Below, in pieces: positions 15,676 to 44,420 of a stretch of 64,000 bases of DNA. Source of the DNA: Parcubacteria group bacterium Gr01-1014_31 (GTDB lineage Bacteria > Patescibacteriota > Patescibacteriia > Buchananbacterales > GWA2-38-13). The stretch lies in NCBI GenBank assembly GCA_007376135.1, contig VMFR01000004.1, positions 21,745 to 85,744 on the forward strand, written 5' to 3'. The translations under genes and the position numbers were made by a program. Under the pieces are notes generated by a model that saw nothing but the letters and a program-made list of their open reading frames with translations, was not told the origin of the DNA and did not search any database. Position 1 is the stretch's first letter; each line of letters begins with the position of its first letter.

Positions 15676-15693
15676 CCGATAAAAAGTTGTTAT

Positions 15694-15830: not shown

Positions 15831-15841
15831 TTCATCGAGAA

Positions 15842-15928: not shown

Positions 15929-16022
15929 GTTCTCGATGCTATTACACCATGGAGGCGGAGAAGACCCTCGTGCAACACTCTCGCCCGCCTACCGGCAGGC
16001 AGGCCGCTGGATGCGACCTTCC

Positions 16023-16343: not shown

Positions 16344-16364
16344 AGAAAAGAGGGAATTAAAAAA

Positions 16365-21071: not shown

Positions 21072-21509
21072 TCAGTCCTGGGCCGTTTCGCCCTCGTAAA
21101 CGCCGCCGGTATCCACGATCAGGGATAATTCCACCAGCCGCGAACTACCCACGAGCGGTTTATGACGGGGCGGTACGATCGGCTTGGTCGTTATTTCCTT
21201 CATCGCCAGCTGGAGCTCGGCCAGCGTCAATCGTTTGTCCCAGAGGGTCAGGCGCGGCCGCTTTATGGTTTGGATGAAATTGAGGATAAAATAATGGACC
21301 GGGCGACCGTTGATCTTGATGAACGCGAACACAATGGTAAACACCGCGATTACCAGTAACCAGAGCAGGAACAAAGTGAAATCGGAAACCTTATACGCCA
21401 GGAACACCAGCCCGCCGGACACCAGTAAAATAATGAACTGGCGCACCGTGATGGGACCGATGACCTTGTCCTCCACGTCGAGGAATTGCGGAACCACGAA
21501 CTGCTGCAT
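21072..21509 (-). CDS. PrgI/VirB3-like small membrane protein
   Basis: 145 aa. MQQFVVPQFLDVEDKVIGPITVRQFIILLVSGGLVF followed by two TM helices. It lies immediately upstream of the VirB4 region, as PrgI-family proteins do in Gram-positive-type T4SS. Confidence 0.55.
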   Translation of the reverse strand: MQQFVVPQFLDVEDKVIGPITVRQFIILLVSGGLVFLAYKVSDFTLFLLWLLVIAVFTIVFAFIKINGRPVHYFILNFIQTIKRPRLTLWDKRLTLAELQLAMKEITTKPIVPPRHKPLVGSSRLVELSLIVDTGGVYEGETAQD

Positions 21510-30000: not shown

Positions 30001-31822
30001 CCAGCACGGGGCGCGTGAACCCATAGCCAAACCCGCGCAGAAGCGCGCCCTCTTCCGATTGGTCCTTGAGCAGTACCCCGAGGTCGCCCGCGGACCGCTT
30101 GCCGAATGCCCCGCCGATGCGCTTCATCAAATGTTCACGGAAACTGGTTTGTGAGTGTTCTTTATCTCCGTACTCATCGGGGTACCGCTGCGCCATGTAG
30201 CCCATGTAGTCGTCGGTTTGGTTGGCCTTGTTCAACGCAAGCGCGGCCGCGAACGCGCGTACCTGGTTCTTGTTCTTGATGGCCAGATCGAACTCGCTGG
30301 CCTTTTCCGTTTCCGTCAAGGAATGCAGCTCGGACATTTCCTTATTGACGAGCGAACGGAATGCCTTGTCCCCTTCCTTGGTTTTTTCGCCCTCCAGCCG
30401 AGGAATAGCTCCGACGGTCACCCCCGCGACCTTGAGCCGCTGCCAACGCAAGCGCGGCTTGGTCGTACTGTTGAAAAAGTCGGCCATGTCGCCAACCGAT
30501 TTACCGAACGATTGCTGCTCAGAGAGCTGCCGCGCGCGCGTCCAACCCTGCCGACGAAGGGTGGGGCTCAATATCCCGGCAATCGGCGAATACCACCGTT
30601 TGTCCTGAACGCGCCGACCGAGCCATCGGTCAGTCAGCCGGCCCGCGGCGAAAGTACCCTCGCGCGCCAGCCAGCCGGCGCCGCGCAACGGAGAGGTACC
30701 CGCGCGGATGCCGGCGCGGGCCATGCGCTGGCCGTACGACCGTAGACTTCCCATGACCGAGCCGGCAAACTGCGAACCGGCAACTCCGGCCTTCTGGGCG
30801 GCCACCAGCCCGCCCAGCATCAGGCAGGTCATCACCAAAAACTTCAACACGTTCTCTTTCTCTCCGGCCTTGCCGATGCCCACCCGCAATGACGGTTCCA
30901 GTTGGGCAACACCCCCTTCGCTCAAGGTGGTGGTCGGCGCACGCGTGGTATCCAGCGTTTCCGTGAAGGCCTGTTCCGATGTGGCGATGGCCAACCAGAA
31001 GAAGAACATCAAGATCGGCCCGACGGTTACATATTTGGAGAAAGTCTGCCACCACTCGCGGCTGTAGCGCTCCCCCTGCGGGAACGCCGACAGTACGTAC
31101 GCCAAGGGTGAAAGGATGATGAGGATCCACAACGCGACGATGCGCAGCGCGAACACCACGAGGTACGCCAAGATGACGGAAAACGCGATGATGAGCATGA
31201 TGGTCGCCAGCAGCAGCGACAGGAAGAGATAGAACAGCGCGATATTCTCCTCGCCCGAACCGGGGAGGAACGCATCCTGGCTGATGGCGAACAGCTCTGC
31301 CAGCCCAAACTTGGCGTAGAGGTTGCCGGCCGTCACCTGCACGATGGCGTTGGCGAACGTCAGGGTCACCACCTGGGCGGCATCAATGAGCAGGCCGGAG
31401 ATGACCTTGCTGAAGTTGACGAGGATCGCCATCAACAGCAATTTAGGTAGCAACCGTTTGAGGTTGTACGACTCCAGGCGCAGGATGGTCGCGACCGCAA
31501 TGAGCAGCAGCACGACCACGAAGAACATGTTGCCAATGTCGCGCACCAGCACCCACCCGAGGTTGACCGCTTCAAAATTGATGAAATCGTTGTAGACGAT
31601 GACCGACGTCAGCAGACCCGTGATCATCACGGTCAGCTGCCCGACGAGACCGGCGACCGCCTGCAGCACGTAGCTCAGGATGAGGTAGACGTACCCCGAC
31701 AGGTTGCGGATGAACGTCTGCGCCGACGCGGGCTGCGCGAACAGCAAACCCATGACCAGCAGCGCGGGCCACCAGCGGCGGCTCGTTGCGGTCAGCACTA
31801 TGGTCAATCGGCGTAAGCGCAT
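24077..31822 (-). CDS. Giant (~2,580 aa) protein with an N-terminal VirB6/TrbL-like polytopic membrane domain fused to a long hydrophilic region that includes >1,000 aa of Gln/Ala/Glu/Arg-rich coiled coil
   Basis: Signal-peptide-like N-terminus (MRLRRLTIVL...AQPASAQ), then ~6 TM helices over ~300 aa. Residues ~1,200-2,300 are heptad-like and Q/A/E/R-rich, followed by a Pro/Ala/Ser-rich segment and an acidic C-terminus. Start at the ATG at 31822, with an alternative at 31846. Confidence 0.7.
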   Translation of the reverse strand: MRLRRLTIVLTATSRRWWPALLVMGLLFAQPASAQTFIRNLSGYVYLILSYVLQAVAGLVGQLTVMITGLLTSVIVYNDFINFEAVNLGWVLVRDIGNMFFVVVLLLIAVATILRLESYNLKRLLPKLLLMAILVNFSKVISGLLIDAAQVVTLTFANAIVQVTAGNLYAKFGLAELFAISQDAFLPGSGEENIALFYLFLSLLLATIMLIIAFSVILAYLVVFALRIVALWILIILSPLAYVLSAFPQGERYSREWWQTFSKYVTVGPILMFFFWLAIATSEQAFTETLDTTRAPTTTLSEGGVAQLEPSLRVGIGKAGEKENVLKFLVMTCLMLGGLVAAQKAGVAGSQFAGSVMGSLRSYGQRMARAGIRAGTSPLRGAGWLAREGTFAAGRLTDRWLGRRVQDKRWYSPIAGILSPTLRRQGWTRARQLSEQQSFGKSVGDMADFFNSTTKPRLRWQRLKVAGVTVGAIPRLEGEKTKEGDKAFRSLVNKEMSELHSLTETEKASEFDLAIKNKNQVRAFAAALALNKANQTDDYMGYMAQRYPDEYGDKEHSQTSFREHLMKRIGGAFGKRSAGDLGVLLKDQSEEGALLRGFGYGFTRPVLDSKGRPTGDVENVLVSEDSAREELAAEHKAAPTIHNNPNIRANVLRKLEEKFGEEFGTIIGRGKMENFVAKTEGKAFFKFHPTAQPFEDVLSGGKVVHSRMGRMDRLGKIASAKFDTVFFGRVVAQRGHGLQPRAAEFAGFRFDQKTGSMALDIRSVYDQLKAKGHHGVANLFGQKNISSQQAVAVERIMNLAGVKNYDGTPGIELDKYTEEQFTKSGKTYEPTSYAAARTGPLSPELETYVKSRTAAKWLEYLQHGIPGATDINGKPAALQDEEVPEEWRLHDGYAPKGGRPLMETYSPEVQAASQEAYQRLIAAGMSEPEANEAYGRLHQEEIRAGTLYAASAIVRHEQVEEKRSESLDAMRGVASIERRPAEGYAEGPLAEYGRRAVAGIGVNFESAEAGQRYGVVPGMTAVNYDESTAERKLNKDIVAKNLAEDYRKELVGRGVAFRQETAQRLGKQPHAVTNEELHDAYAAKYQTLKPADADKQYADRVVGQWAAAEFKEGNAAGRVEELRDASGAVSGYRYKDAAIAENQQGEALRQMSQDKDVSSLAAGEVSAQQREAEFKKRLDTASTLSLHNNAAFGSRFTARRHEYGHTLANQLNDEQRQAFRGTLSEEQQQLFDQETPEEYLAHSLGVNDNAHTLSEQTRKFLDELEVTDKAGNKAKGARYRGRTLKPDETLPPQEKSERAITDEEIVEIHRRRQQKPDVQIGKLLTGAAGQQGSRAQESTRAEAQVRQANTALTAEQQKLDQLEGQRGELLGETDAHIAKGQAARQRAEQAKARGDQLGFTVNDREAIKERDLARDSQAKVQPQLDALNKQVADQRGVVDQRQEALRQAEALRQRAAASAGPNSQAFIAALQKSLDQLPDAELDDIAEKVLAEVSPQWGSATEGAQAALEGERGELAALEADRSKLKSSTLVRQQAARYAEARDVNAAQEAYDRSAGQLGAANQRVNEQEQVVQTQEENVEHARIELQNAKVELPAAAAAVGQEGSALQAIQTQLTTLMGNRDVLTRERDQHLTNQNAASQRLNAARASGNALAEQQALEEATREQALAATAEEKIAAPLAQLNEQIDAQNAAKAAQETRVAAAVEHHGRARQDVGVKRQAYDAEYLRLQESRRTLVQHRADQQALGEAVQINQAAVQQAGIGLTPQEIAAARQQADQSAQQLAQLDQQISTKRRDVAGKEEALDNARQADQAFPELLTTLQERVRYTQERREAAKPENVAARAQQELSGSRGKLAELEQNHDELARRAQVHHRLRKRAADQGNQEEAGRQERLAQAAERDLRAAQQRIAKQQQEVQAKERAVQAQQPKPVPVSKGQQALTAVEEKFLAARQGNREEVVGAKQEIGAKEQALQASQLELGNRVKVRDQRQVELAELNAQARKAAEEGNYQAQEEAQTLARVKQQEVVAAADAVTEQQGVVAKDSQAFDGVQADYRRRVEESVQSLETFAAAVRDAAGTLSKDELAQQLSNAQSELEANNKEAEEKATQGDDAGARAAHDRAQRAQIIRDQLDYTVKRRRLGLAPKARGSGLKEAGQELSTAKTKRDFNYRELTEKRSGLVQQHQAAEKDLQKQQARQAKAAPGAERKRANDAVKTAQDRFNAVGSQIKGVDKEIGEWDDLVLKNAADVSDLVLAQEELAIARRRLGEAKTMGEQELPAMSKEYEHLDKRRLAVGAALQQQSAAAQRAQSTGNVAALRKAQQAIAEQSGEMEQIEQRMGEIQGFSAGLMDLVEQAENIATAAEENVGRAAEAAAEGIAPPSVRAVPPPKAKPAPSAAAAPSPTSRESSAGFAAAGETRSAAPAGSPTGQRTAAVQAVVEEVDTQTRAAKQLPSVDVKSLETTLKSMATGLQEVANGIQSLQAVQEGASESAGKDEKDAAKKFDTLSKNLREGMGRVQDFESAAAMGTGVTQEQADELADILFQINRSLQEMAQRNEGSAGASEIPSIPPESLPGEPPKSRPTI

Positions 31823-31835: not shown

Positions 31836-32837
31836 TTATGCGGCAACGCGATACTCCTCCTCCGCTTCTTCCGAGGCCAACTGCTCGTCTTCCATCACCG
31901 TAGTGGCGTATTCGGATTCCAGCATGGCTCCCTGGGATGCGCGTTTTTTTCGCTGGTGCCGGGCATACGACCACACGTACAGGGCCGAAATCGTCCAGGT
32001 CGGGATAATGCCAACGATCGGTATCCACTCCACCAGCATCGTAAAAAGCTTGCTCGCCACCCACGCCATCCAGCCGATCTCATGCTGTTTAATGAAGAGC
32101 CTCGCCCCCAGCATCAGCGCAAGACACGCGAAATCGAACAGCTGGTCAATGCCCAGCCCGATACTGACGTCAAAGATATCCACCAGATCGTTGATGATGG
32201 AAACTGCCAGCACCAGCAGATACGGCCAATCGGAGTTCTGCGCCGCGCCGCTGATGAACCCGGCGACCGAGCGTCCTTGGGCCGCCACTTTTTGCTTATT
32301 ATCTTTCGATAAACGCCCGCCCATACCTCCCATGCGGCGCAACTCCCGCAGGCTCGCAGCTTGCTCACGGCGCAAGGCCACTTCCCGTTCCAGCGCTTGC
32401 TGGAGAGCGTCGCTCTCTTCTGTTGCCTGCGCCTGCTGCTGAGTCTCCACGCCTGCCTCCTTGTTCCCCCGCCGCTGCGCCATCGTGTCGGTGAACTGTT
32501 CCAGCTTCGGCGCCAGGGTCATCTCCCCGGGACGCGACGGCCGTTGGCCTGCATTCCTGAATGTTTCCGCTTCATGTTGCTGCCGGACCGCCACGAATGC
32601 ATCCCGCGCGCTGGCAAACCCATCCGGACCGCCCCGGGACGCCTTTCCGCGGTTTGCCCGCTGCCGGTCGCGCTGGCGCATCGCGGCAAGCTCTTGCGCA
32701 TATCGCTGCTCGGGTACCGCCGTTTCCATCTCCATCACCGGAACGTCCAGCTCCCCTTCGGCCTGGGCGGACGCGCCTTTCCCCGGCCGCGGTGGCGGCG
32801 GTGGTGCTGCGGGTCGGCGTGTCGTAAGGTCTGCCAT
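31836..32837 (-). CDS. Hypothetical membrane protein (C-terminal four-TM bundle, Pro/Ala/Gln-rich N-region)
   Basis: Start chosen at the ATG at 32837 (MADLTTRR), 5 nt after the giant gene's stop. The C-terminal hydrophobic segments begin WPYLLVLAVSIINDLV... Confidence 0.5.
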   Translation of the reverse strand: MADLTTRRPAAPPPPPRPGKGASAQAEGELDVPVMEMETAVPEQRYAQELAAMRQRDRQRANRGKASRGGPDGFASARDAFVAVRQQHEAETFRNAGQRPSRPGEMTLAPKLEQFTDTMAQRRGNKEAGVETQQQAQATEESDALQQALEREVALRREQAASLRELRRMGGMGGRLSKDNKQKVAAQGRSVAGFISGAAQNSDWPYLLVLAVSIINDLVDIFDVSIGLGIDQLFDFACLALMLGARLFIKQHEIGWMAWVASKLFTMLVEWIPIVGIIPTWTISALYVWSYARHQRKKRASQGAMLESEYATTVMEDEQLASEEAEEEYRVAA

Positions 32838-32842: not shown

Positions 32843-35800
32843 CTACCGTCCGCACAATTCCGGCCGAGCCGAGTCGCAGACACGCACCAGAGCCGACCGG
32901 GCCTCCACCCACGCGCCGTTATTATCATCGGCGATCGCCGGTGTCCCATCATCGGGGCAAGTATTACAGGCGAGGTTGGTCGTATTCACGTCCGCAAAAA
33001 TGGCGTTGGAACACCAGCACCAGTTGTCGCGCACCAACACGCCGACCTGGAAATCGCAGTAGCCGTCCGGAGTACCACTCCCGCCAGGAAGCACCCCCTT
33101 GTCACAGGTGGTCTGCACGTACTTATAGGTATGGGTGAACTGGAACGGGTCGGCCGGGTCGGACTTATCGCGCAACCCCGAACGCCAGTCGTTGTCGGTT
33201 ACCATCGTATCGCGGTTCTCCATATCCCAGCGCACGCGCAGCAACCGCAGCGGAAGCTGGTCGTTGTCCACCTTGACGTTGAAACTCAAGGTCACGTTCC
33301 CTTGGCCGACGATGTAGAAGATCGGGGCTTCGGCGTTCTCGATCTTGACGTTGAATACTTCGGGCGACACGCCGCACCAGTCCCCGCTGCCGTCCGGGTC
33401 GGTGAGCGGCGTTTCCGTGAACCGCGAGGGGCGGATATTGTCACGGCAACGGTCAGCCGGCGGCCGCCAGGCGGTCGTTTCCTGGCAGCTGCCCGATACC
33501 TGGCATTCGACGTCGGTGATGCAGGTGCCCGGGTTTTTAGCCGACCCCGCGGAACACTGCCCGACGCAGCTGGCCTGGTGGGCGGCCGGGTTCCAACAGT
33601 CACCAATATTCTGGCAGGCTCCCAGCACATTCACGCCGGCTGAACAGTAGCCATAGGTGCCATTGGCCGGTGCCTGGCCATCCGGGTCCTCGCCGACGCA
33701 GGTGCCAACGCCGCTGCCGTCGGACTTGGTATTGCACATTTCATCATTGAAGCAAGCCACGCCGCGCAAGGGGTAGGTGGGGCTGGCGTCATCGCACCGT
33801 CCGTAGATGAAGCCGGTGATATCGCACGTTTCGCTTCCGCCACCCGGGCAGTCGGCGGTGGTGCGGCACGGCACTTCCGAATCGTTCAGGTCATTGCCGT
33901 CGCCAAATGACCCGCAGCGGCCGGTCGCACAGAAGATCTTGGGATTCCCGGCGCACGCGGTATCCGAGGTGCAGGTGATGTTGAGCGCCGTTTCCGCGTT
34001 CTCGGGCTCGCCGGTCGGGTAGTAGGCGCAGTACCCGCCGCTCTTCACGCACACCGACGTAGAATCCACACAATCGTTGGACCCCGGGGCGCAACTGTCG
34101 CCCGACCTCGGGCCGCCCGCGCAGTAGTTGGTCGGCACGGTGTAGGTCTCATAGGCACTGCCGTTCCAGCGCCAGTCGCCGTAGCTGGTCGCAAACAGGC
34201 GCTTGAGGCGTTCGCGCGCGGTATGGAACGACGCCACCTCCACCGAGTCGTTCGGCAAACGGCCCGCCGCGGCCGACCACCGATCGTAGAAATGATCAAA
34301 GTAGACTTGCCCCGCCTGGTCGCCCGGGTATTCGTACGGATGGCCGAAATCCGCGGCCTGCACGCGGTCGGAAACCAGCGGCCACTTGGTCGGGTCGCCG
34401 ACGAAATTGCGTCCGATGACGCCGAACGGCGCAGCCAGGTCGGAAACCTTGTAGTTGAGGGTAGGCACCTGGTAATCGGCGGACAAAAAGTCCTGCACGG
34501 TTTCCAGGCGCTCCTGCCAGCCGCGCTGCGCGCCGTCTTCATCCACCACCTGCACCACCTCGTGGCAGGCACGCTGCCAGTAGGTGGGCACCCGCCGCTG
34601 TTCTTCACTGTTGAAGCCGAAAATGGTCGTCGGGTCTTCGGGGTCCCACAACACCAGCCCGGTGGCGCCGCATTTCGGGCAGAACATCAGGTGTTTCTTG
34701 GTCGGCCGATCGCTGGCATCCTCGCGCGCCTTGTAGTCGTACCATTGGTTACTCTCGGTATCCGTCAGGTAAAGGTCGGATTGGTCGGGCGTGCAGTACC
34801 AGCGGCAGCGAATACCGGGCTCGAAGAAATTCCCGCATTTTGAACGCCGCTGTTCCGGGAGGTAGCCGGGCGGGCAGGAAACCGTACCGCAGGTCATGGA
34901 ATTACGTTCGGCGTGGTTGGCCGCGGTCTCGGCGATCGCGCCGATCGGATTGAACATCCCCCACCAGCCGAAGTCCGTCTGGTAGCAATGATTTAATTCG
35001 AACCGCCCCGGCCGCCGGGTTTCCAAAATGACCGACTCATTGCACATGAAGGTCGACGCCCGCAAGTTGCCGCGCCAGCCGGTGATGCCGACCCAGCCGC
35101 CGGTCAATTCGTCCACGGGCAGCCAGTTGAGGCACAGGTACGGGCTGCGCGGGTCTTTCTCCACGCAGAACCCGTAGAGGCCGAGGAATTCGCTCCGGCC
35201 CTGCACGTAGTGGCATTCGCTCGCCTCCGCCAGCGACGTTTGCGACAGCAAACTGCCCGTCAACGGGTCGGTCAGCGGGTCATTGATATCGACGATCTGG
35301 GATTTGGCGGGCTCGTCGCCGGTATCCACCGGAGCCTGCGCGGTCCAGCGCGGAGCGCTGCCCGACGGATAGACGCGGCAGGATTCAAAGATAAGGTCCT
35401 CGGTAGGGTTGGTGCCGACCTGCAGCACCGGCTGGCAGACGCCGTCACGCTCGTCGCCGGTATGGCAATCCGCGTCCTCCAGGCATGCCGCGCCGCGGTT
35501 GCCGGCCACGCAGACCTTGCGCTGGGTCATCACGCCGTAGGGGAAATACCCGTCCACCTTGGTATCCGCGTCCCACTGGAAACCGACCTTGGCGTAACCG
35601 CTGAAGAATTGGCTCAGTTGCACGCTGCCGGCATCAAAGGTGAGCGCCTGCAATTCCTCGGTCGGGTAGCTGGAACAGCGGCCCGAGATCGAGTCCAAAC
35701 GGTCGCAGGTGGCGATCTGCTGGCAGAACTCCTGGACCTGGCCGGTGCGGAAGCTAACCTGCTTGCGGCTGGAGATACAGTCGAGCCAGCGCGCGCAGGT

Positions 35801-38800
35801 CCGGTCCGGCGCGACTTTCACCAGCAGATTGCTATCGCAGGTACCGGGCCGGCAGATGCCGCCCGCACCGCAGTCGCCGTCCGAGGTGCAGCCCGCCCCC
35901 GGACGCGTCCCGCCGACGCACTGCTGGGGCTGGCAGACCGATGGCGGCTGGCCGGCAACGGTCGCCGTAGTGCTGTATTTGAGTGTCGGGTCGCTGGTGT
36001 CATTCACCAGAACGCATCCCTGCGCCGGGTCATACACCCCGTTGCAGGAACTGCGCTCGATGCTGTCAGCCAGGTAATGGTAGACTCCCGTCGGCTTGAG
36101 GTCGACGTCATCGTAGGTGCCGGCGTTCACGATCTTCACGGTCACTGCCCGATCGCTTTCCAGGACGAAGAATCGGCCGGTGAAGCGCCGGAATGTTGAT
36201 TCCGTTACGCCACCGACCGGCAGCACGACCGTGTCGCCGCGGGTCGCCAGCACCCCGTTCGAGAAGATCGCCACCGAATGGTCGAATTGGGTGAAGATCG
36301 GACGTTTGCTGCCATCGACGGTGGTCACGACGATGGACGCATCGCGCGCCGAATTCTTCACGGACGCGGTGACCGTATAGAGCGTGCCGCCGTTCAACCC
36401 GAGACTCTGCCGGACCTCGGTACCCGCCGGGGTCGGGGCCGTCACCCGCACGGCGGAACTGCGGTTGACTCCCTCGCCGCGCTGGTGGTCGGCCGGAGAC
36501 CCCGCCAAATTCCACGAATTCAGTTTACTCGCGCTGCAGACGGAAAGTTCGCACGCCTCGCCGCCGCAATCGACAGGCCCGCTGCAAAGTGTGCCGTCGG
36601 CACAGAACCGCAACCCGCCGCTGGCCGCCGAGCAATCAGTGTCCAGACGGCAGACCGTTTGCGCGTCATGACTGCAAACCCGGAAGAACCCCTCAAAATT
36701 ACTGTTGGGGAGCATCCCGGCCTGCGGGTCAGACATCGGATCGACGTAGGCGGTGCAACTGGCGTACTCGGCTGGACACTGGCCCACCCACGTGCGGCAG
36801 TCGCCGCCCGATGTTTCGCAGACCCCCGTGCCACAATCGATATTGCTGTCGCACCGCGCACCCTCGAAGGTTCCGCCGCCGCGGCACACTTTAAAACTGC
36901 AATCCGCATCGCTGGTACACACCTGGCCCTCGAGGTCGCCGCCCTGGCAGGTTTTCCCCGGCTGTGTTTGGCCGAATCGCGTGGTAATGGCCGGACAGTC
37001 GGGCACCGACGAGGTGCTGCCGGTGATGAACCAACCGAAATCCTGACGATGCGGGATCTGCTTGTACTCGCAAGTGCGCGCACCCGGATCGCGGAAATAG
37101 ACCGTGCCGACCTGCGGCGAGACATACTCACGGCAACCGACCTGGTCTTCGGTGCACAAGCTGACCCCGTACCGTTCCGGATCGTTGACGAGGTAGCGCG
37201 TTTGGTACCCGCTGATTTGGCCACGCGCGTCCTGGACGGGCAGCCCGAACGCCTGGCAGCCCTCCGCCGCGGCGGCACACTCCTTGCTCAGGTCGCGCAC
37301 ATAGTACGCCAGGGTGTCGGCCGGCACCGTCACTTCTGCCTGCGCATGGCCGACATTGAACGGTTCGGCGAGCGCGCTGGTCGAATTCTTCGTGTCCACA
37401 AATTCCTCGCAGCCCACGGAGCTGTCGCGGCACAGCCGTTCGAACGACTTCAGGTAGGTTACCTGCCCTTTGCTGGTCGTGTATTCCTGGCAGCCGAGCG
37501 CGAACTGCGGAGAATTCGGCGCCGGGAAGCGAACCGGGTCCAGCGTCGGATCGGTGTCGCAGATGAGCGGCGTGCGCCAGGAATTCTTGACGAGGTAGCT
37601 GTACTCCTGCACTTCCGTCAGGGATACGAAGTCCACGGCCACCGGCGTCCCGCCAGCGGTCGTGAGCCGTAGGGTGGCGACCGGGTTGACGCTGGTCACC
37701 AAAATCGGCTCGGTAGTATACTCCTCCCAGTCCGTCAGTACCCGCAGGTTGTTCTTCAGTTCGCAGGAAGTGCCGTCCTGGCCGCAGTCCACCCCCAACA
37801 TGTTCACATTCACCGTGACAATACCGGTCTGCGCCTTGGCCCAGAACGTCAATTGGTAATTCCGTCCGGGAACTAAACGCTCCCGCAGGAACCCGCACCC
37901 GAGCTCCAAATTTTTCGCCCGGCATTCCTGGCCGGTGTTGAAAAGCCGACAGGTATCGGGCTCGGTGGAGGCATCAAAACAGTCAGCGGTCGATCCTGCG
38001 ACACAAGCAGGCAAAGCATTGCTGCAGACAGTGGCCTGCCGCATGGTCTCCATGGTTGTACCGGCGATCGAATGGCCGCCGATGGTCACCGCATCGCTAG
38101 AAATGGAGCCGACCATCCATCCCAACGTGTCGCCATCCTCAAAATCGTCATACCACACCGTGCGCAAATTACCGCCGGCATTGCCGCGGTACTCGCGGCA
38201 GCCGCTCTGTGCGGCCGGGCAGGCGATACTTTCATTGGGTACTGCCTGATAGATACACTCATTGCGCGGCTCGAACTCCTGGCCCCCAATGCCGACGCAG
38301 TCGTCCTGGTGCATGAAGCAGTCACTGCCGCCTACCAGCTGCATGCCGCCCTGTGCCAGGCAGTTGGCAAGCGGCGCATCGATGTCGCCGTCGGTGTCGG
38401 TGTCATCGCCGCACACGCCCCAGTACCCGCCACTGCCTTCGCAGGCCCCTTGCGACGAATCGATGAGGCGGAACGGATGGCATTCGTCTGAGCAGCTCAC
38501 CGTCTCGCGCAGTAACCGATAGTACACATTGCCATTCGTTGCATGGAATTCACGGCAGTTGGGGTTGATGACAGCGTCAAGAGCCGTCGCACACTGCCCC
38601 AGGTCAAGGAACGCATCTACCCAGTCCGGCTCGTCCGTATCGCCAACCGTCCCGCCGCTGACCGCCGGAACGCGGTCGGCAACGTCCCGCCGCAGTGTGT
38701 AGCTCTTCAGCTGATAGCCGTTCACTTCCGAGCCGACCCACGTGTAGTAGGTGCGGCAGACATTGGCGTCGGGCTTGGTGCACTGGCGCAGATACGTATA

Positions 38801-41800
38801 GCTGCCCCGCCCCTCGCCGCCGCGTGCCACCTCGTCAAGATTGGTGAACTGCTCACAGCCGGCAAAACGAGCCTCGCACGAACGGGCCGTGTCCGCGATG
38901 AAATACAGGAAGTCGGGCTGCCGCGCGGATGGGACCGCATCGGCAAAGAACGTCTCCGTCTGCGAAAACGCGCTGTAGTCCACGCACGCGGCCGGGCACA
39001 TATCGCCCGCCGTCGTGATACCCGGCAACGGCGGTTCGCCGTTGGTCGGCGTGTAGCGTTCGCACCCGACCTCGTCGGCGCGGCAGACCTGGCTGTAACG
39101 GCTGCACGCCGAGTGGTCGGTCTGCGGGTCGCCGGTACACCCAAGGTACGCGGGCGACGTTTTCAGATGCACCACGGGGTTGCTGATGAAGTCCCGGTAC
39201 GCCAACGCCGCGGGCTCCGCGCGCGGAGCGACCTCGACGATGTGCACTCCGTCCACGGCAATGTCGCTGGCCGCGGTCGAACCAAAGCGGAGACGGAATT
39301 CACGATGGCCGCTCGGTGCCGCCATCGGCTCGAAGAGGAAACGCTGCCATTCCGCGGTCAGCGGCAGCGGGCTGTGGCAGCTGCCTGCCCCCGCCGTAGT
39401 GCAATCCGCCTCGCGCCGGCAGGCCGGATTGGCGCCACCGTCGCACACCCCCAACCCGTCCGCGATCAATTCCAGACTGCGCGCCGTACCGCCGCTATCC
39501 ACGCTGTCCAGCCACGCCCGCCAGGTGACATTCGCGGTATTGGCCTTGGCGAAAAATGATACCTGGTAGGTCGCGCCGGATTTCAGGAGCGGCAAGGCGG
39601 CGGTGCGAAAATCTTCCGACGTGGCGTCACTGTCGGTGTAGTGCAGGTACGTACTGCCGAATGCCGCGCCTTCCGTTTCGCGCGCCACGATGTCGCCGGC
39701 GGTGTCCCCGCCATGCCGTTCCCAATTTGGCGGGAAACGGCTCGACGGGTCTGGCCACTGCTCAAAACTAGAATTGTAGATGAAATTAACCAAGCCCTGG
39801 GTGGCCGGGATGAGCGCGCGGCAGCCGCTTTCCTCCTGGCTGCAGGCGGCAATATCGCGGTCGAAGTAGAGCTTGCTGCCGTCGGCATCCTGGGTGCCTT
39901 CAAGGTAGACGGTCACATCCTGCAACGGACAAGCGCGCTCCAGCCGGACCTCATCGAACCAGACGGTTCCCACCGGATTAATGCCCGCGACGGCCTCCAC
40001 CACCATCCGCACGCGCCCGCCCGCCAGCGGATCGGAAGTGGTGCAGCTGACGGTTGCCCACTGCCCCTTGGCATAATCCGCGTCGATGGTACTGCAACCC
40101 CCGCTCGAGGACGGCACCACCTCAACGTAGGCACGGCCGAACTGTAGCGTGCTATAAATGCGCGCCGTCAAGGTGTAGGGCGGGTTCGCGGTCGGTGGCA
40201 CGGAAAGCGGATCGGATTGCGCGACCATCTGCGCAACGGTGCCGTCGGGATCGATCCGCACGGCGTAGTTGCCGACCGCCACTTGGTTGTTGACGCCGGC
40301 GATCCGTTGCCAACGGCTGCCGCCGCCGACCACGTCGTTGGTCGACCAACTGGCCGCGAAGATGACGCGGCCCGCCTGCACGCTCAAGTCGGCGCTCTCG
40401 GTCTCAAATCCGCTGTTGTCGGCAAAACTTTCCGCGGCCCCGCAGCGCGGTACCGTGCAAGCGACCGCCCCGTAGGGGATCTGACAACTGATACCCGTTG
40501 CTACGTCAGTCGCCAGGCAACTCGCCCCCTGGCAGGTTTCTCCGCGCGGGCATTCGGCGTCCTGGGCGCAGGAGCGGCCGCTCACGCTGCAGCGCCCCAG
40601 CTGCTGGCACGGTTTACGCACGCGCTCGGCTTCGCCGACGCACGACCACACCCCCGAACCCACATTGAAATCACGGCAGTACCACTGGCACCCGACGGCA
40701 TTGGCATCGCAGCCGCCGGCATCCAACGTGTCGCCGAGGTAGCTGACCGCGCGGTTGGCGTCATCCTCGTAGCTCCGGCAGCTGTCGTACTGCGGCGGAC
40801 ACTGGGTCCCGGCGAATTTCCAGACCGGGGTCTCCTGAGTGCACAGACCGTAGGCGCGACAGGTGCCGTTCGCATCCTCCACGATGCAGGATCGCGTATC
40901 GGTGCAGGTATTTTCGCGGGACACGGTCCGGCGTTCGAACTGGTAGCTGGGCAGCTGCCCCGTCAACGGGTCGGCGGGCTTGTTGCGCTGCACGATCGTC
41001 TCTTCGCGCGAGTAGACGCTGGTAAATTTATCCCCGGGCCCGGTCAGCCGGCAGTAGGTCTCGGGGGCCTTGAGCACCCAGCCGTCATCCACCAGCCCGT
41101 AGAACGGCGAATCGGGGTTACCGAAAGCGCGGATGATATCGTTGAGCGAGTAGGCCTGCCGCTGCTCCAGTTGGCCGATATACGCGGCCGCCAACTCCCA
41201 ACCGACGGGCAGGATGCGGTACTTGCGCAGAATGACGAATGACGAGTGCGCGTACCCATCATTGGCGGTCGGCTGCGTGCCCGCGCGCGTGTAGCCGAAG
41301 GTCGAACCCGGACCATCGGCGAACAACAATCCTTCCTGGATCGCCTGGCGCACCGTCAGTTTGCGGTCAATGGCCGTCTTGAATGATTGGTTGATAACGC
41401 CGTCGCCGACCAGGAGCGAGGTCACGTCCATTCGATTGAGGCGAGGGTCGCCAATGGCGAGGTTGGTGGAAAAGAACGCCTCAAAATCCTGGCGCGCGTC
41501 GGTCCGCAGTGCATTGGGGTCGGCGGTCGGCGAACGCAGACCCTCCAATTTGCTCCAGTTGAACTTATCCGGCTTGCTGCTGCCGCCGCCAAATCCCTTA
41601 GTGTACAGCCGCTGCAGCATCTTGGATACCAGCGTGGAGGTGAACGCGTCCACCGCATCAGCCACGGCCTCGCCGGTATACGTGAAGTAGACGTCACCCA
41701 GCGTACCGGGGGAAAGCGCATCGGCAGACCACTCCTTAACCAGCGACCCAGGCGTCAAAATATTTCCGGCGATGTCCACCACGGGCTTCAGCCCCTGGCT

Positions 41801-42589
41801 TTCCAGCCGGCTTAAGATCTGCTCCTCGTGGGCCTCGGCCTGCTTGGAGTAGAAGCTCGACCATACTCCGATGCCGATGCCAAAGTCATTCTGGTTGGGC
41901 GAGAACGAATCATGGATGATCTGGTCGAGCTTGGGCGGATTGTCGATGAACTGCTCCCAGTTGTCAGCCAGCTGTGTGAACGTACACGATGGTTCCGCCG
42001 GCGGCTGCGCGGCGTCCAAAAGCCCCAGGGACAGCTTTAACTTCAGGTCAAGCCGCGGCCGGCAGAGGTTGGGCAGCCCGACGCCTTCAGCGAACGACTG
42101 GATGAAGTGTCCGGCGGCCGAATCGCCGACGCGCGACAGGTACGCACCCCAGCCTTCCGTTTCATACAACGGCTTTTTTCCTTTACCACCCTCAGCTAAT
42201 TGCGTCGCCGTATCCACGGCCAGCCGCCGCAGAAAATAGCTCAAGGCGTTCTTATAGGCTACGGCCGCGGCGGTCTTCGCATACTTCTCCGCATTTTTTT
42301 TGATCCACTCCCAAACTTGCTGGAACAGATTCGGCTCGTCGCGATTATCCACTTCCTGGCCGGTGCGCGGCTGCGTTGGCGGGCTATCAAAGGAGCCGCC
42401 ATCACCGCTAAAAGTTGCCTCCCCGCCGCCATCAAAAGACCCGGCCCCGAAGCTTCCTTGGGCGAACGCAACCGGAGCAAGCGTGAAACTCTGAAGAGTA
42501 AACAGCGCAAGTAGCGACGCAGCACACCATTTCCGCCAGCGCAGGGCGCGACGGCGCGACGATCGAACCGAATATACCATCAGTCTCAT
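32843..42589 (-). CDS. Giant (3,248 aa) cysteine-rich secreted or surface protein
   Basis: ATG at 42589 overlaps the upstream stop (ATGA). N-terminal signal peptide (LLALFTLQSFTLAPVAFAQG). Hundreds of Cys residues in CxxC / C-x(n)-C patterns throughout, Gly/Thr/Asp-rich, no TM beyond the signal. Confidence 0.7.
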   Translation of the reverse strand: MRLMVYSVRSSRRRALRWRKWCAASLLALFTLQSFTLAPVAFAQGSFGAGSFDGGGEATFSGDGGSFDSPPTQPRTGQEVDNRDEPNLFQQVWEWIKKNAEKYAKTAAAVAYKNALSYFLRRLAVDTATQLAEGGKGKKPLYETEGWGAYLSRVGDSAAGHFIQSFAEGVGLPNLCRPRLDLKLKLSLGLLDAAQPPAEPSCTFTQLADNWEQFIDNPPKLDQIIHDSFSPNQNDFGIGIGVWSSFYSKQAEAHEEQILSRLESQGLKPVVDIAGNILTPGSLVKEWSADALSPGTLGDVYFTYTGEAVADAVDAFTSTLVSKMLQRLYTKGFGGGSSKPDKFNWSKLEGLRSPTADPNALRTDARQDFEAFFSTNLAIGDPRLNRMDVTSLLVGDGVINQSFKTAIDRKLTVRQAIQEGLLFADGPGSTFGYTRAGTQPTANDGYAHSSFVILRKYRILPVGWELAAAYIGQLEQRQAYSLNDIIRAFGNPDSPFYGLVDDGWVLKAPETYCRLTGPGDKFTSVYSREETIVQRNKPADPLTGQLPSYQFERRTVSRENTCTDTRSCIVEDANGTCRAYGLCTQETPVWKFAGTQCPPQYDSCRSYEDDANRAVSYLGDTLDAGGCDANAVGCQWYCRDFNVGSGVWSCVGEAERVRKPCQQLGRCSVSGRSCAQDAECPRGETCQGASCLATDVATGISCQIPYGAVACTVPRCGAAESFADNSGFETESADLSVQAGRVIFAASWSTNDVVGGGSRWQRIAGVNNQVAVGNYAVRIDPDGTVAQMVAQSDPLSVPPTANPPYTLTARIYSTLQFGRAYVEVVPSSSGGCSTIDADYAKGQWATVSCTTSDPLAGGRVRMVVEAVAGINPVGTVWFDEVRLERACPLQDVTVYLEGTQDADGSKLYFDRDIAACSQEESGCRALIPATQGLVNFIYNSSFEQWPDPSSRFPPNWERHGGDTAGDIVARETEGAAFGSTYLHYTDSDATSEDFRTAALPLLKSGATYQVSFFAKANTANVTWRAWLDSVDSGGTARSLELIADGLGVCDGGANPACRREADCTTAGAGSCHSPLPLTAEWQRFLFEPMAAPSGHREFRLRFGSTAASDIAVDGVHIVEVAPRAEPAALAYRDFISNPVVHLKTSPAYLGCTGDPQTDHSACSRYSQVCRADEVGCERYTPTNGEPPLPGITTAGDMCPAACVDYSAFSQTETFFADAVPSARQPDFLYFIADTARSCEARFAGCEQFTNLDEVARGGEGRGSYTYLRQCTKPDANVCRTYYTWVGSEVNGYQLKSYTLRRDVADRVPAVSGGTVGDTDEPDWVDAFLDLGQCATALDAVINPNCREFHATNGNVYYRLLRETVSCSDECHPFRLIDSSQGACEGSGGYWGVCGDDTDTDGDIDAPLANCLAQGGMQLVGGSDCFMHQDDCVGIGGQEFEPRNECIYQAVPNESIACPAAQSGCREYRGNAGGNLRTVWYDDFEDGDTLGWMVGSISSDAVTIGGHSIAGTTMETMRQATVCSNALPACVAGSTADCFDASTEPDTCRLFNTGQECRAKNLELGCGFLRERLVPGRNYQLTFWAKAQTGIVTVNVNMLGVDCGQDGTSCELKNNLRVLTDWEEYTTEPILVTSVNPVATLRLTTAGGTPVAVDFVSLTEVQEYSYLVKNSWRTPLICDTDPTLDPVRFPAPNSPQFALGCQEYTTSKGQVTYLKSFERLCRDSSVGCEEFVDTKNSTSALAEPFNVGHAQAEVTVPADTLAYYVRDLSKECAAAAEGCQAFGLPVQDARGQISGYQTRYLVNDPERYGVSLCTEDQVGCREYVSPQVGTVYFRDPGARTCEYKQIPHRQDFGWFITGSTSSVPDCPAITTRFGQTQPGKTCQGGDLEGQVCTSDADCSFKVCRGGGTFEGARCDSNIDCGTGVCETSGGDCRTWVGQCPAEYASCTAYVDPMSDPQAGMLPNSNFEGFFRVCSHDAQTVCRLDTDCSAASGGLRFCADGTLCSGPVDCGGEACELSVCSASKLNSWNLAGSPADHQRGEGVNRSSAVRVTAPTPAGTEVRQSLGLNGGTLYTVTASVKNSARDASIVVTTVDGSKRPIFTQFDHSVAIFSNGVLATRGDTVVLPVGGVTESTFRRFTGRFFVLESDRAVTVKIVNAGTYDDVDLKPTGVYHYLADSIERSSCNGVYDPAQGCVLVNDTSDPTLKYSTTATVAGQPPSVCQPQQCVGGTRPGAGCTSDGDCGAGGICRPGTCDSNLLVKVAPDRTCARWLDCISSRKQVSFRTGQVQEFCQQIATCDRLDSISGRCSSYPTEELQALTFDAGSVQLSQFFSGYAKVGFQWDADTKVDGYFPYGVMTQRKVCVAGNRGAACLEDADCHTGDERDGVCQPVLQVGTNPTEDLIFESCRVYPSGSAPRWTAQAPVDTGDEPAKSQIVDINDPLTDPLTGSLLSQTSLAEASECHYVQGRSEFLGLYGFCVEKDPRSPYLCLNWLPVDELTGGWVGITGWRGNLRASTFMCNESVILETRRPGRFELNHCYQTDFGWWGMFNPIGAIAETAANHAERNSMTCGTVSCPPGYLPEQRRSKCGNFFEPGIRCRWYCTPDQSDLYLTDTESNQWYDYKAREDASDRPTKKHLMFCPKCGATGLVLWDPEDPTTIFGFNSEEQRRVPTYWQRACHEVVQVVDEDGAQRGWQERLETVQDFLSADYQVPTLNYKVSDLAAPFGVIGRNFVGDPTKWPLVSDRVQAADFGHPYEYPGDQAGQVYFDHFYDRWSAAAGRLPNDSVEVASFHTARERLKRLFATSYGDWRWNGSAYETYTVPTNYCAGGPRSGDSCAPGSNDCVDSTSVCVKSGGYCAYYPTGEPENAETALNITCTSDTACAGNPKIFCATGRCGSFGDGNDLNDSEVPCRTTADCPGGGSETCDITGFIYGRCDDASPTYPLRGVACFNDEMCNTKSDGSGVGTCVGEDPDGQAPANGTYGYCSAGVNVLGACQNIGDCWNPAAHQASCVGQCSAGSAKNPGTCITDVECQVSGSCQETTAWRPPADRCRDNIRPSRFTETPLTDPDGSGDWCGVSPEVFNVKIENAEAPIFYIVGQGNVTLSFNVKVDNDQLPLRLLRVRWDMENRDTMVTDNDWRSGLRDKSDPADPFQFTHTYKYVQTTCDKGVLPGGSGTPDGYCDFQVGVLVRDNWCWCSNAIFADVNTTNLACNTCPDDGTPAIADDNNGAWVEARSALVRVCDSARPELCGR

Positions 42590-43404
42590 GGGCTTTCCGT
42601 GCCTCCTCGCAACGCTTCGAGCATCATCTGCTGGAGCTGTTCATCGGACAGTCGGTCAAGCGTTTCCTTGGGCAACCCCTGCTGGAGCAGCAACTGACGT
42701 AGGCCATCACCGGTGGGCGGTTGACCATCCGGCGCAGAGGGCGCCGTCCCGGACGCGGCCACGCCGGAGGACGCTTGCTCCTGTACGACTTCTCGGTATA
42801 CCTCTTCCAACTGCTGGTCGGAAAATCCGGCAAGCAATTCATCCGAAAGCCCAGCGCGCCGCAGCTGGTCGCGGACCGCAACTGGGTCGAATCCCGGGGC
42901 GCCGACCGAAGGGATGGCCGCTGGAGTTGGCGCAATTTCCGGTGCGACCGCCGTCACACAGGTTTGCCCCTCAGGGCAAGTCGGGTCCGTTCCCGCGGTC
43001 ACTTCGGCGCGGTCGGGCTGGCCGTCGGAATCGGTGTCTTCAAGATACGCCGACGTGCCAAGCGCCTGTTCCTCAAGGTCGGTCAGACCATCGCCATCGG
43101 TATCGGGAGCCTCACCGAGCGCCAACGATGCCGGGTTGAGCGCCGTAAAATCGCTCAAGCTCGGCGGCGCCAACTGGGAAATCCTTGCCACCGGGAAGCG
43201 CAGGCTGGCGCGCAGCTGCACCACCCCTACCACCAGCGTCAACACGCCAAATCCGATGGTCAGCGGCGCCACAACATTGGCGAAACGAAAACGTTCCCTG
43301 CGGTTCGCTTTGGGGCGCGAACCGGCGCGACCGTTCCCCGACTGGCGGTAAATCTCCTCCAGTACCGTCAGCGTACGTTCCGAATTTTGCCCGCTCAAAG
43401 ACAT
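42586..43404 (-). CDS. Membrane-anchored protein with thrombospondin-type-3-like Ca-binding Asp repeats. First gene of the block.
   Basis: TM FANVVAPLTIGFGVLTLVVGVV. Repeats DTDGDGLTDLEE and DTDSDGQPDRAE. A duplicated C-terminal helical motif: LSDELLAGFSDQQLEEV and LSDEQLQQMMLEAL. Confidence 0.55.
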   Translation of the reverse strand: MSLSGQNSERTLTVLEEIYRQSGNGRAGSRPKANRRERFRFANVVAPLTIGFGVLTLVVGVVQLRASLRFPVARISQLAPPSLSDFTALNPASLALGEAPDTDGDGLTDLEEQALGTSAYLEDTDSDGQPDRAEVTAGTDPTCPEGQTCVTAVAPEIAPTPAAIPSVGAPGFDPVAVRDQLRRAGLSDELLAGFSDQQLEEVYREVVQEQASSGVAASGTAPSAPDGQPPTGDGLRQLLLQQGLPKETLDRLSDEQLQQMMLEALRGGTESP

Positions 43405-43497: not shown

Positions 43498-43541
43498 AAT
43501 TTCCGACTATGCGGAAACAAAAAAAGACCCCCGAAAGGGCC

Positions 43542-44420
43542 TTAATTAAGATAATTTTTTACCTTTTTGGCAAGAGTTATCCACTGGGGGACGGTCAGCT
43601 CCTGGGCACGGGCATTTGGCGTCAAATCGCAAGACCGAATCATTTCGTCCAGCGACATTTTGCCTTGCCGATGCGCTGAGGAGAGAGCGGCCCACGCCCG
43701 CAGGTTGTTCGTCAGCGTTTTGCGGCGTGAAGCAAATCCGATCTTGCATACCCGCAGGACGGTTTCCGCCTCCAGCCCATCGCCGCACAACGTTGCCAGC
43801 TCGGGAAGCGAGCGCAGGCGCAGACGGACAATGGCGGAATCAACCGCCGGCACGGGCCAAAAACTTTTTCGCGGTACCGAGGCAACGATTTCCATGTCGG
43901 CATGGAGCTGGCACAGCACGGAAAGCATGCTCATCTTCCCCGGCGGCGTCGTCATGCGCTCGGCCACCTCGCGCTGCACCATTAGGACAGCGAGCTGTGG
44001 TCGCGGTACCTCGGTCAAAAGACGCCGCAGGAACCTCCCGGTAATCCCGTAGGGCAGGTTGCTGATCGCCTTGAACCCGTCAGGCACGCCAAGCGCAAGC
44101 CAGTCCAAGCGCAGCGCATTCCCTTGATGGAGGGAAACGTTCGCATGACTCGCGAGCAGTTCGCGCGCCGCCGCGGCAAGCGTCGGGTCCGCCTCAATGG
44201 CGACTACTCGACCGGCCTGCGGAGCGAGCGCCTGCGTGAGTGTGCCGAAGCCCGGCCCGACCTCCAATACGACGTCGCTCAATGTCAATTCGCCCGCCGC
44301 CACCGCCGCGGACAAAGCCGCCCCGTCCACCAAAAAATTCTGTCCGGCGCTAGCACTTGGACGTACGCCAAAACGGCGGCACAGCTCTCGCAGATCGTCG
44401 GGATCGGTAAGCGTTGGCAT
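43542..44420 (-). CDS. rsmA: 16S rRNA (adenine1518/1519-N6)-dimethyltransferase RsmA/KsgA
   Basis: SAM-binding motif GQNFLVD...VLEVGPGFGTLT. NLPY motif ISNLPYGITGRFL. Start chosen at the ATG at 44420 (ORF-track start 44441 is TTG). Confidence 0.9.
   Translation of the reverse strand: MPTLTDPDDLRELCRRFGVRPSASAGQNFLVDGAALSAAVAAGELTLSDVVLEVGPGFGTLTQALAPQAGRVVAIEADPTLAAAARELLASHANVSLHQGNALRLDWLALGVPDGFKAISNLPYGITGRFLRRLLTEVPRPQLAVLMVQREVAERMTTPPGKMSMLSVLCQLHADMEIVASVPRKSFWPVPAVDSAIVRLRLRSLPELATLCGDGLEAETVLRVCKIGFASRRKTLTNNLRAWAALSSAHRQGKMSLDEMIRSCDLTPNARAQELTVPQWITLAKKVKNYLN

Follow-up and report, generated by a model that had tools for sequence, protein, structure and literature searches.

The 64,000-nucleotide stretch of DNA analyzed here (the window: positions 21,745 to 85,744 of contig VMFR01000004.1, forward strand, from Parcubacteria group bacterium Gr01-1014_31, assembly GCA_007376135.1) encodes an exoprotein of 3,248 residues, here called the giant, next to genes of a type IV secretion system (T4SS). 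Its gene is real and intact and specifies a secreted protein, predicted to be disulfide-rich, which is built from a conserved N-terminal domain, a beta-hairpin scaffold with invariant Cys residues and four fast-evolving jelly-roll inserts that resemble carbohydrate-binding modules of families 4 and 22 (CBM4/22). The giant belongs to a very widespread, previously undescribed protein family that fits a known theme, that of the T4SS-associated surface adhesin. On balance, we favor a multi-lectin adhesin or stalk that would be exported by Sec, folded with the help of DsbA and held at the cell surface, where it would serve the Patescibacteria T4SS. Coordinates of all features are collected in Table 1.

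An intact gene for a secreted, Cys-rich giant

An earlier, sequence-only reading of the window had described the gene as a single open reading frame (ORF), and this description stands: the frame contains no internal stop codon, is far longer than chance would allow and has full-length, collinear homologues. The 59 homologues found by a word-indexed search (P0001–P0059) are 2,300–3,600 residues long; those of 3,043–3,365 residues align with the giant over 95–100% of its length at 38–55% identity, one of them at 55% identity across 100% of the query, and a partial homologue reaches 87% identity over the 77% that it covers. The predicted signal peptide was also borne out, with a basic n-region (RSSRRRALRWRK) followed by a hydrophobic region at residues 21–40 and a Sec-type cleavage site, and in most homologues a hydrophobic segment near the N terminus likewise precedes a small-x-small site. 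As had been claimed, a Kyte–Doolittle scan found no hydrophobic or transmembrane (TM) segment in the giant beyond the signal. Neither an LPXTG motif, a lipobox nor a C-terminal TM segment was found, the protein ending in ...ARPELCGR. Enrichment in Gly, Thr and Asp, also part of the earlier description, is genuine in direction and modest in extent (1.35×, 1.37× and 1.61× the window background, respectively).

The Cys content required more revision. The giant contains 155 Cys residues (4.77%, or 4.85× the level in the pooled housekeeping proteins of the window) rather than hundreds, and the CxxC spacing that had been ascribed to it occurs only twice, so that a redox-active reading of the protein was rejected; the commonest Cys-to-Cys distances are instead 6, 7 and 10 (C-x5-C, C-x6-C and C-x9-C). 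The motif C-x5-GC is found eight times, compared with 0.76 expected from shuffled sequences, and copies of the unit [hydrophobic]-x-C-x5-G-C-x2-[F/Y] recur as a hallmark of the scaffold. At least 35 Cys residues are invariant in an alignment of 27 diverse family members. Counted after the N-terminal hydrophobic segment, the number of Cys residues is even in 55 of 60 members (P0001–P0059 and the window protein), which argues for complete disulfide pairing; in the window protein, 154 follow the signal peptide and the single unpaired one, Cys22, lies inside it, and some 77 disulfides are predicted. Two of the five members with an odd count look truncated, P0001 being annotated as partial and P0021 lacking the N-terminal hydrophobic segment.

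The membrane-anchored DsbA-like oxidoreductase that the sequence-only reading had recognized elsewhere in the window was confirmed by its family matches and CPFC active site, and presumably catalyzes the folding of the giant and of the other Cys-rich exoproteins. The latter are likewise real, with 2.9–4.1% Cys compared with 0.3–1.7% in cytoplasmic proteins of the window. Conserved and paired Cys residues, an export signal and an available oxidoreductase together point to a disulfide-bonded, DsbA-dependent exoprotein, and the extracellular oxidative folding first suggested for the giant is supported as a prediction.

Jelly-roll inserts in a conserved scaffold

Residues ~100–650, 1100–1950 and 2150–2350 are common to all 59 homologues, and the C-terminal 150 residues to ~25 of them. 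The four inserts, termed J1–J4, are the least conserved segments, both across the family and relative to the 55%-identical homologue (identity of J2, 0.40–0.47), and their evolution outpaces that of the scaffold. Each is framed by N-x-x-F-E at its start and [FY]-D-D/E-V-x-L at its end, and hhalign relates them to each other in four of six pairs at a probability of 84–97% (J1–J2, 96%; J1–J3, 85%; J2–J4, 84%). At variable sites, some relatives contain Laminin_G_3, DUF642, sialidase-type lectin or dockerin domains.

Structure prediction by segments, which had been proposed in the sequence-only reading, yielded an all-beta AlphaFold2 (AF2) model for residues 1101–1950 from a 26-sequence alignment (predicted local distance difference test score (pLDDT) 78; predicted template-modelling score (pTM) 0.59), in which the scaffold residues 1101–1477 are all-beta with pLDDT ~80–90. 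When compared with the PDB by Foldseek, this model matched the CBM22 entries 4xup and 4xuo (E ~1e-5, probability 1.0, target template-modelling (TM) score 0.67), with CBM4-2 and CBM16 also among the top matches; the target TM scores of the CBM22, CBM4-2 and CBM16 matches span 0.55–0.68. The output gave no query ranges, and these matches were assigned to J3, the sole jelly-roll segment that the model covers. A full-length family profile matched the CBM4 of laminarinase 16A in the PDB (1gui, E = 3.3e-4), and weak profile matches at profile positions 892–1034 (CBM22 4xuo, E = 0.11; a GH31 CBM, E = 0.03) were assigned to J2 by their position; for most relatives, CBM_4_9 (PF02018) is precomputed. 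The modelled fold of the J modules is the beta-jelly-roll (galactose-binding-like) one of CBM4/9/22. Four CBM4/22-like modules that are at the same time the fastest-evolving parts of the protein lend support to the adhesin candidacy raised from the sequence. Foldseek also returned the toxins Vip3, Vip4, CDTb and Cry; with TM scores <0.25, a toxin reading was rejected, and these matches most likely reflect only the CBM-like receptor-binding domains of those proteins.

Outside the inserts, recognizable relatives are scarce. Pfam and NCBIfam scans of the whole giant gave only sub-threshold CBM_4_9 and DUF7107 matches (Pfam) and nothing in NCBIfam, and PDB searches with the giant's sequence and two family profiles (A5, full length; A6, N-terminal domain) returned only CBM4/22 matches. 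In the AF2 model of the N-terminal domain, residues 81–380 form long helices of low confidence and residues ~381–530 a compact alpha/beta subdomain with pLDDT >90. The subdomain contains R455, P461, E465, A467, W504 and C513, which are invariant in the family together with C176 and C202; the domain also features the motifs ASGGxGQxPLF and ILRKYRIxPVGWELAA. No match better than E = 0.1 was found for this model by Foldseek against the PDB and BFVD, no relatives emerged from the A6 profile search of the PDB, and a Pfam scan of 33 members revealed no recurrent family.

The invariant E465, R455 and W504 in this confidently predicted subdomain, and the fact that, in known proteins, CBM4/22 modules are usually found alongside glycoside hydrolases (the PDB matches being CBMs of a xylanase and a laminarinase), raise the question of whether the giant is an extracellular enzyme, for example with a muralytic or glycan-degrading N-terminal domain that replaces the missing VirB1 and with CBMs that target the wall of the host or of the cell itself. 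VirB1 homologues are indeed mostly not found near virB4 in Patescibacteria, and other glycosidases may substitute for them (PMC12102498). However, to ascribe catalysis to the invariant residues is purely conjectural, and neither Pfam, NCBIfam, PDB sequence and profile searches nor Foldseek detected similarity to a catalytic family; we consider an enzyme unlikely.

Toward the C terminus, conservation becomes patchy. In the lineage-specific region of residues 2521–3040, only 7–16 of the 59 homologues align, and the identity of the giant to P0002 is 0.25–0.5. A Gly-rich, hydrophobic, TM-like insert is present in 8 of 173 full-length members (P0002, residues ~2618–2665; P0010, ~2791; six other representatives), always at 74–84% of the length, and has raised the possibility of a membrane-inserting tip; the window protein does not contain it. 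The C-terminal domain, with the motif QLPL...W(G)D...PF..H.Y...DNW.WC, has no Pfam match and may be PKD-like, at the level of motifs only.

A widespread family in Patescibacteria

A HMMER search with residues 81–560 found at least 1,272 representatives of 50%-identity clusters at E ≤ 1e-3, 1,103 of them at E ≤ 1e-10. Among the best 150 of these 1,272 matches, the N-terminal domain lies near the N terminus, and most of the proteins comprise 2,400–3,800 residues. When each GTDB species was represented by a single genome, at least 581 genomes proved to contain a relative. All family labels read Buchanan-, Falkow-, Uhr-, Parcubacteria or Patescibacteria; the 59 homologues in particular are named after Buchananbacteria, Falkowbacteria, Uhrbacteria or 'Patescibacteria group' and are all labelled hypothetical. 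We take the Buchanan-, Falkow- and Uhrbacteria lineages to fall in GTDB class ABY1. Literature searches found no prior description of the family. Many public records of metagenome-assembled genomes ('binchicken' or '_co'; loci L008, L012, L013 and others) that contain a Patescibacteria-type locus are titled 'uncultured Gammaproteobacteria bacterium', which appear to be placeholder or wrong labels.

A membrane partner and a probable T4SS operon

Directly upstream of the giant lies the gene for a small bitopic membrane protein with two TSP3-type Ca-binding repeats, DTDGDGLTD and DTDSDGQPD (PF18884 TSP3_bac, 26.5 bits, cut-off 25), for which no PDB sequence match was found. The giant's ATG overlaps the TGA stop codon of this gene (ATGA; ...CCCATGAGA...), as the sequence-only reading had noted in describing the two as translationally coupled. 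To place this arrangement in context, genes were called around five homologue loci, and 84 loci were fetched for synteny counts. The TSP3 stop codon lies within 30 nt of the giant's first ATG in 49 of 68 loci, seven of these being overlaps, and the partner is similar throughout (median length 259 residues; a single TM segment in 68 of 71 and DxDxDGxxD motifs in 70 of 71).

A hairpin, AAGGCCCTTTCGGGGGTCTT, with a T-run at 43543..43524, followed by a TATAAT-like box (...TTGTTATAAT) at 43518..43499, is the probable boundary and start of a transcription unit headed by the TSP3 gene. It is the only terminator-like hairpin and lies upstream of that gene; between the giant and the next two genes, no convincing terminator was found. 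All of these genes are on the same strand, with gaps of 5 nt from the giant to the gene for a 333-residue protein and of 13 nt from there to the gene for an extended VirB6-like protein. Between the giant and the VirB6-like gene, 5–24 nt intervene in the window and likewise in L001, L002 and L006, three of the four T4SS-linked loci that were annotated; L004 has a small extra gene 94 nt after the giant. By comparison, the gap between KsgA and TSP3 genes amounts to 117–260 nt in three of the four T4SS-linked loci, with 25 nt in L002. The small gaps around the giant, the larger KsgA–TSP3 gaps and the hairpin are stronger arguments for a single transcription unit than synteny is.

The genes that follow include VirB4, PrgI and TrsD/TraC-like proteins, and the matches of these proteins place the cluster as a probable Patescibacteria (ABY1-type) T4SS of the MPF-FATA-like class. 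The VirB6-like protein consists of a TM block and ~2,200 residues of Q/A/E/R-rich coiled coil with one Cys; it has no Pfam match in the window, and its L004 homologue has a weak TrbL_3 match. Homologues of this TM block elsewhere reach only ~800–1,450 residues, the window copy being unusually extended. No family match was found for the 333-residue protein, which has two TM segments, and no PDB sequence match for the 190-residue bitopic protein, whose position suggests a VirB8-like role. Genes for ComF, RecG and a RadA-like protein are present in the window, and no VirD4-like coupling protein or relaxase match was found in it. This is the ABY1-type context of a recent T4SS survey, which reports comF, recG and radA in the neighborhood (PMC12102498).

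The same gene order was found in four of the five annotated loci (Buchananbacteria, Falkowbacteria and two others). A TSP3-like gene lies directly upstream of the giant in 66 of 69 informative loci, a VirB6-like TM block directly downstream in 36 of 43, and PrgI, TrsD or VirB4 within 10 kb in 23 of 29. The link to T4SS-like genes drawn from the sequence alone is thus upheld by the shared strand, gaps of 5–13 nt, the lack of a convincing terminator and an order conserved in dozens of genomes.

Whether the giant is itself transported by this T4SS, as the sequence-only reading had offered as an alternative, is a separate matter. On this view, Sec export and disulfide folding would be followed in a second step by release or injection through the T4SS, as for pertussis toxin, the disulfide-bonded substrate of the Ptl system. 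That system does without a coupling protein and sets a precedent for a Sec-exported T4SS substrate (PMC12857230), and the giant is encoded in a T4SS operon. However, these bacteria are monoderm, so that Sec export by itself takes a protein outside, with no further membrane left to pass, and 346 kDa with ~77 disulfides is implausible for a T4SS channel. A lectin-bearing scaffold in which Pfam, NCBIfam and PDB searches found no toxin or enzyme domain does not suggest cargo either. T4SS substrates are otherwise characterized by a cytoplasmic precursor, a coupling protein and the absence of a Sec signal, whereas the giant possesses a Sec signal and disulfide-dependent folding outside the cell, and its cluster lacks a coupling protein and a relaxase. 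The substrate proposal is therefore disfavored, and a cargo role is the least probable of the explanations considered here.

Other features of the window

A T4SS-pilin-like protein (56056..57075, minus strand) is encoded directly downstream of the DsbA-like gene; its PF18895 score of 23.2 bits is under the cut-off of 26.6, and it has three hydrophobic segments and a C-terminal extension of 200 residues with 14 Cys. Two further exported proteins (55147..55803 and 45617..46447, both minus strand) have a near-identical N-terminal segment (...AVRT.TR.AT...QV..AAA.AVP.G.FAAALG...GQVRIA) and different ectodomains with 8 Cys each, one of which includes an fn3 domain; the common segment may be a signal/anchor or a pilin-like leader. 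Next to the T4SS/ComF block, a low-GC island (~13570..16860; GC 0.47, compared with ~0.61) is bounded by tRNA-Arg (13573-13648) and two tRNA-Ser genes (15841-15929 and 16774-16860) and contains a DUF4238 gene (14516-15613) and a gene for a small TM protein (13792-14301); the island resembles an integrated element of foreign origin.

Table 1. Features of the giant, its gene neighborhood and the presumed folding enzyme, in window coordinates
Feature	Position	Strand	Details
Giant exoprotein gene	32843..42589	minus	3,248 aa; ATG start; mature ~346 kDa; pI 4.65; 155 Cys
Signal peptide	42461..42589	minus	residues 1-43; cleavage after residue 43, between AFA and Q
Conserved N-terminal domain	41000..42349	minus	family conservation, AF2 model
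Jelly-roll J1	39932..40426	minus	residues 722-886; missing in ~half of family; occupancy 0.42-0.5
Jelly-roll J2, CBM22-like	39290..39784	minus	residues 936-1100
Cys-rich beta-hairpin scaffold	38159..39289	minus	residues 1101-1477; C-x5-GC-x2-[FY] at residues 1169, 1238, 1457
Jelly-roll J3, CBM4/9/22-like	37622..38158	minus	residues 1478-1656
Cys-rich scaffold	36743..37621	minus	residues 1657-1949; C-x5-GC at residues 1720, 1771, 1812
Variable jelly-roll-like J4	36080..36742	minus	residues 1950-2170; N-S-N-F-E...YDDVDL frame; low occupancy and identity
Conserved Cys-rich region	35030..36079	minus	residues 2171-2520; motifs DR-C-x2-WL and GFCVEKDP...CLNWLPVD
Lineage-specific variable region	33470..35029	minus	residues 2521-3040; Cys-rich (C-x6-C) in this organism
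C-terminal domain	32846..33469	minus	residues 3041-3248; conserved in ~25 of 59; invariant F3103, W3190
KsgA	43542-44441	minus	housekeeping; upstream of TSP3 gene
Terminator-like hairpin and TATAAT-like box	43499..43543	minus	directly after KsgA stop; consensus scan only
TSP3 partner gene	42586..43404	minus	272-aa bitopic membrane protein; TM residues 44-62; 2 Cys
333-aa protein (from ATG)	31836..32837	minus	two TM segments near C terminus; starts 5 nt after the giant's stop
Extended VirB6-like protein	24077..31822 (ORF to 31846)	minus	2,58x aa; seven TM-like N-terminal segments
Two unannotated proteins	22780-24165 and 21614-22792	minus	no family match
PrgI (VirB3-like)	21072..21509	minus	PF12666, 35.6 bits (cut-off 27)
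TrsD/TraC-like, like VirB4 N-terminal domain	20336..21058	minus	NF041427, E=1.2e-8 (below curated cut-off); VirB4_plasma, E=8e-12
VirB4 ATPase	18285..20252	minus	NF045971 conju_CD1110, 338 bits (cut-off 325); PF19044
190-aa bitopic protein	17716..18288	minus	ATGA-coupled to VirB4
ComF	16952-17665	minus	downstream of 190-aa protein
DsbA-like oxidoreductase	57079..57798 (or to 57942)	minus	membrane-anchored; CPFC active site; PF13462, 101 bits; PF01323, 69 bits

Proposed function of the giant

According to the model that we favor, the giant would be exported by Sec and then, probably assisted by the membrane DsbA-like enzyme, fold extracellularly into a long all-beta scaffold clamped by disulfides, from which four CBM4/22-type lectin modules would project. 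The giant and the small Ca-binding TSP3 membrane protein would be made together by virtue of their translational coupling, and the TSP3 partner, the extended VirB6-like protein or both may hold the giant's N-terminal domain at the cell surface. The giant may then be the host-contact arm of the Patescibacteria T4SS, with variable lectin modules that would bind glycans of the host envelope and keep host and producer joined, allowing the VirB4/VirB6/PrgI translocon to act.

Several points weigh against this model. That the giant stays on the cell, binds glycans, cooperates with the T4SS and takes part in host adhesion is inferred in each case, and a protein with no recognizable cell-wall anchor could simply be released. 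The assignment of the J modules to CBM4/9/22 is one of predicted fold and falls short of the Pfam cut-off, J3 scoring 22.6 bits against CBM_4_9 (PF02018; cut-off 25.9). About 2,000 residues, including the most conserved part, the N-terminal domain, are without known relatives and could possess an activity that an adhesin model ignores. With regard to the T4SS, the fifth annotated locus (L005, contig_57506, 1.08 Mb) retains only the TSP3–giant pair, followed by NusA and YidC, and in L037, L066 and L080 the giant, usually with its TSP3 partner, is located away from T4SS genes; linkage to the T4SS locus is therefore not obligatory for the giant. Finally, the order of KsgA, LeuRS, FemAB, ComF and RecG is likewise preserved across genomes, and since these housekeeping neighbors are just as syntenic, conserved order alone is weak evidence of a shared function.

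The separated pairs and the syntenic housekeeping genes are what would be expected if the giant were a general envelope protein of the surface-layer (S-layer) type or a free, glycan-scavenging lectin, its proximity to the T4SS being no more than frozen gene order. Against this stand the 5–24 nt that separate the giant from the VirB6-like gene, compared with the larger gaps after KsgA and the terminator-like hairpin there. Moreover, a Pfam scan detected no SLH or S-layer domains in the giant, and a Cys-rich composition (4.8% here) is atypical of S-layer proteins. Such a detached role is very unlikely in our view.

A more intimate relationship with the T4SS is also conceivable, in which the giant is a structural, extracellular core part of the machine rather than an accessory adhesin. 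With the TSP3 and VirB6-like proteins as its anchors, such a stalk or conduit would span the wall or S-layer, reach across to the host and replace the missing outer-membrane core or pilus. The giant's first position in the operon and its coupling to membrane proteins on both sides would suit such a part, as would a rigid, disulfide-clamped beta scaffold that does not vary across the family. Conservation is highest in the N-terminal domain, which is located near the N terminus in the best 150 of 1,272 matches, and low monomer confidence in its long helices is what an oligomeric coiled coil would be expected to give. In addition, VirB8- and VirB1-like parts are scarce in Patescibacteria systems (PMC12102498). 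By contrast, the pair is found apart from T4SS genes in some genomes, any channel or oligomerization feature of the giant is only putative, and highly variable lectin inserts fit recognition better than the building of a conduit; a filament could also come from the T4SS pilin-like genes that these genomes possess (PMC12102498). A stalk or conduit in this sense is improbable overall, though less so than an enzyme.

In its boldest form, the proposal would make the TSP3 anchor and the giant an unrecognized core extracellular module of the T4SS, in which a disulfide-rigid stalk, founded on an N-terminal domain without known relatives, bridges episymbiont and host, is required for T4SS transport of DNA, nutrients or effectors, and bears swappable lectins that set the host range. 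We put this forward as a speculative extension that is considerably more likely to be wrong than right. Our preferred reading remains the more general one, of a surface-held adhesin or stalk with lectin modules that serves the T4SS.

Comparison with known systems

Adhesins of Gram-positive conjugation systems such as PrgB are the closest analogues of the giant with regard to its proposed function. PrgB (Asc10) of pCF10 and the 'polymer adhesin domain' proteins are likewise Sec-exported surface proteins encoded in a monoderm-type T4SS locus (PMC7726212; PMC12102498). PrgB-type adhesins are proposed to hold donor and target cells together, and the VirB4 (CD1110 type), TrsD and PrgI proteins of the window belong to the same MPF-FATA class. 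However, the giant possesses neither an LPXTG/sortase anchor nor a polymer-adhesin (GbpC-like) domain in Pfam and NCBIfam scans, and so is not a PrgB-like protein by membership; no sequence or fold relation between the two was detected. It is also ~2.5 times larger than PrgB and Cys-rich, with ~77 predicted disulfides, CBM4/22-like modules and a TSP3 partner.

The J modules are predicted to share the jelly-roll fold of CBM4, CBM9, CBM22 and CBM16 of glycoside hydrolases (4xup, 1gui, 2zew), with a profile match that is weak but specific. Unlike those CBMs, they are not accompanied by a recognizable catalytic domain and are embedded as inserts in a disulfide scaffold. A parallel of a different kind is offered by the cellulosome, because two tandem DxDxDGxxD repeats beside a membrane anchor, as found in most TSP3 partners, recall the two Ca-binding repeats of a dockerin, and one family member (P0026) has a faint Dockerin_1 match. 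The TSP3 partner is nevertheless assigned to TSP3_bac and not to dockerins, and no cohesin-like module was identified in the giant; cellulosome-style, Ca-dependent anchoring is a lead only.

Other giants are analogous in theme only. The extended VirB6 proteins of Rickettsiales/Anaplasma (PMC7648143) and CagY of Helicobacter pylori (PMC10706595) are also products of T4SS loci with several thousand residues and are thought to extend the machine toward its target, but the giant differs from them in being Sec-exported and in lacking a membrane domain and VirB6 or VirB10 homology. Very large exoproteins are also encoded beside secretion or pilus genes in Omnitrophota (bioRxiv 10.1101/2023.11.21.568195) and in Patescibacterium danicum (FhaB/DUF2341 giants; PMC11809585), where they have been proposed to mediate host attachment or attack by ultra-small, host-dependent bacteria. 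In contrast to these, the giant of the window contains neither FhaB nor DUF2341 domains, and while the P. danicum proteins have no full-length homologues, the present family is found in full length in hundreds of species.

Implications for Patescibacteria

In the only species of Patescibacteria tested, the T4SS proved essential, and its role has been called 'completely unknown' in a literature that includes a 2024 perspective and a 2025 T4SS review (PMC11665869, PMC12857230). The only systematic survey of these systems, from 2025, reports that no adhesins were detected; it does not mention the giant and TSP3 genes and leaves such genes unannotated, nor do CBM_4_9 or TSP3 entries occur in the supplements examined (PMC12102498). 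A giant and its membrane partner at the head of a T4SS operon in hundreds of ABY1-type species thus provide a concrete, testable candidate for the means by which these never-cultured lineages recognize their hosts and attach to them. New structural families would be represented by the N-terminal domain and by the scaffold of C-x5-GC hairpins, and even if the link to the T4SS were only positional, the giant would still be a widespread, unannotated surface lectin. Its fast-evolving lectin inserts could mark host specificity, and the giant is a good but unproven candidate for how cells of the candidate phyla radiation grip their hosts.

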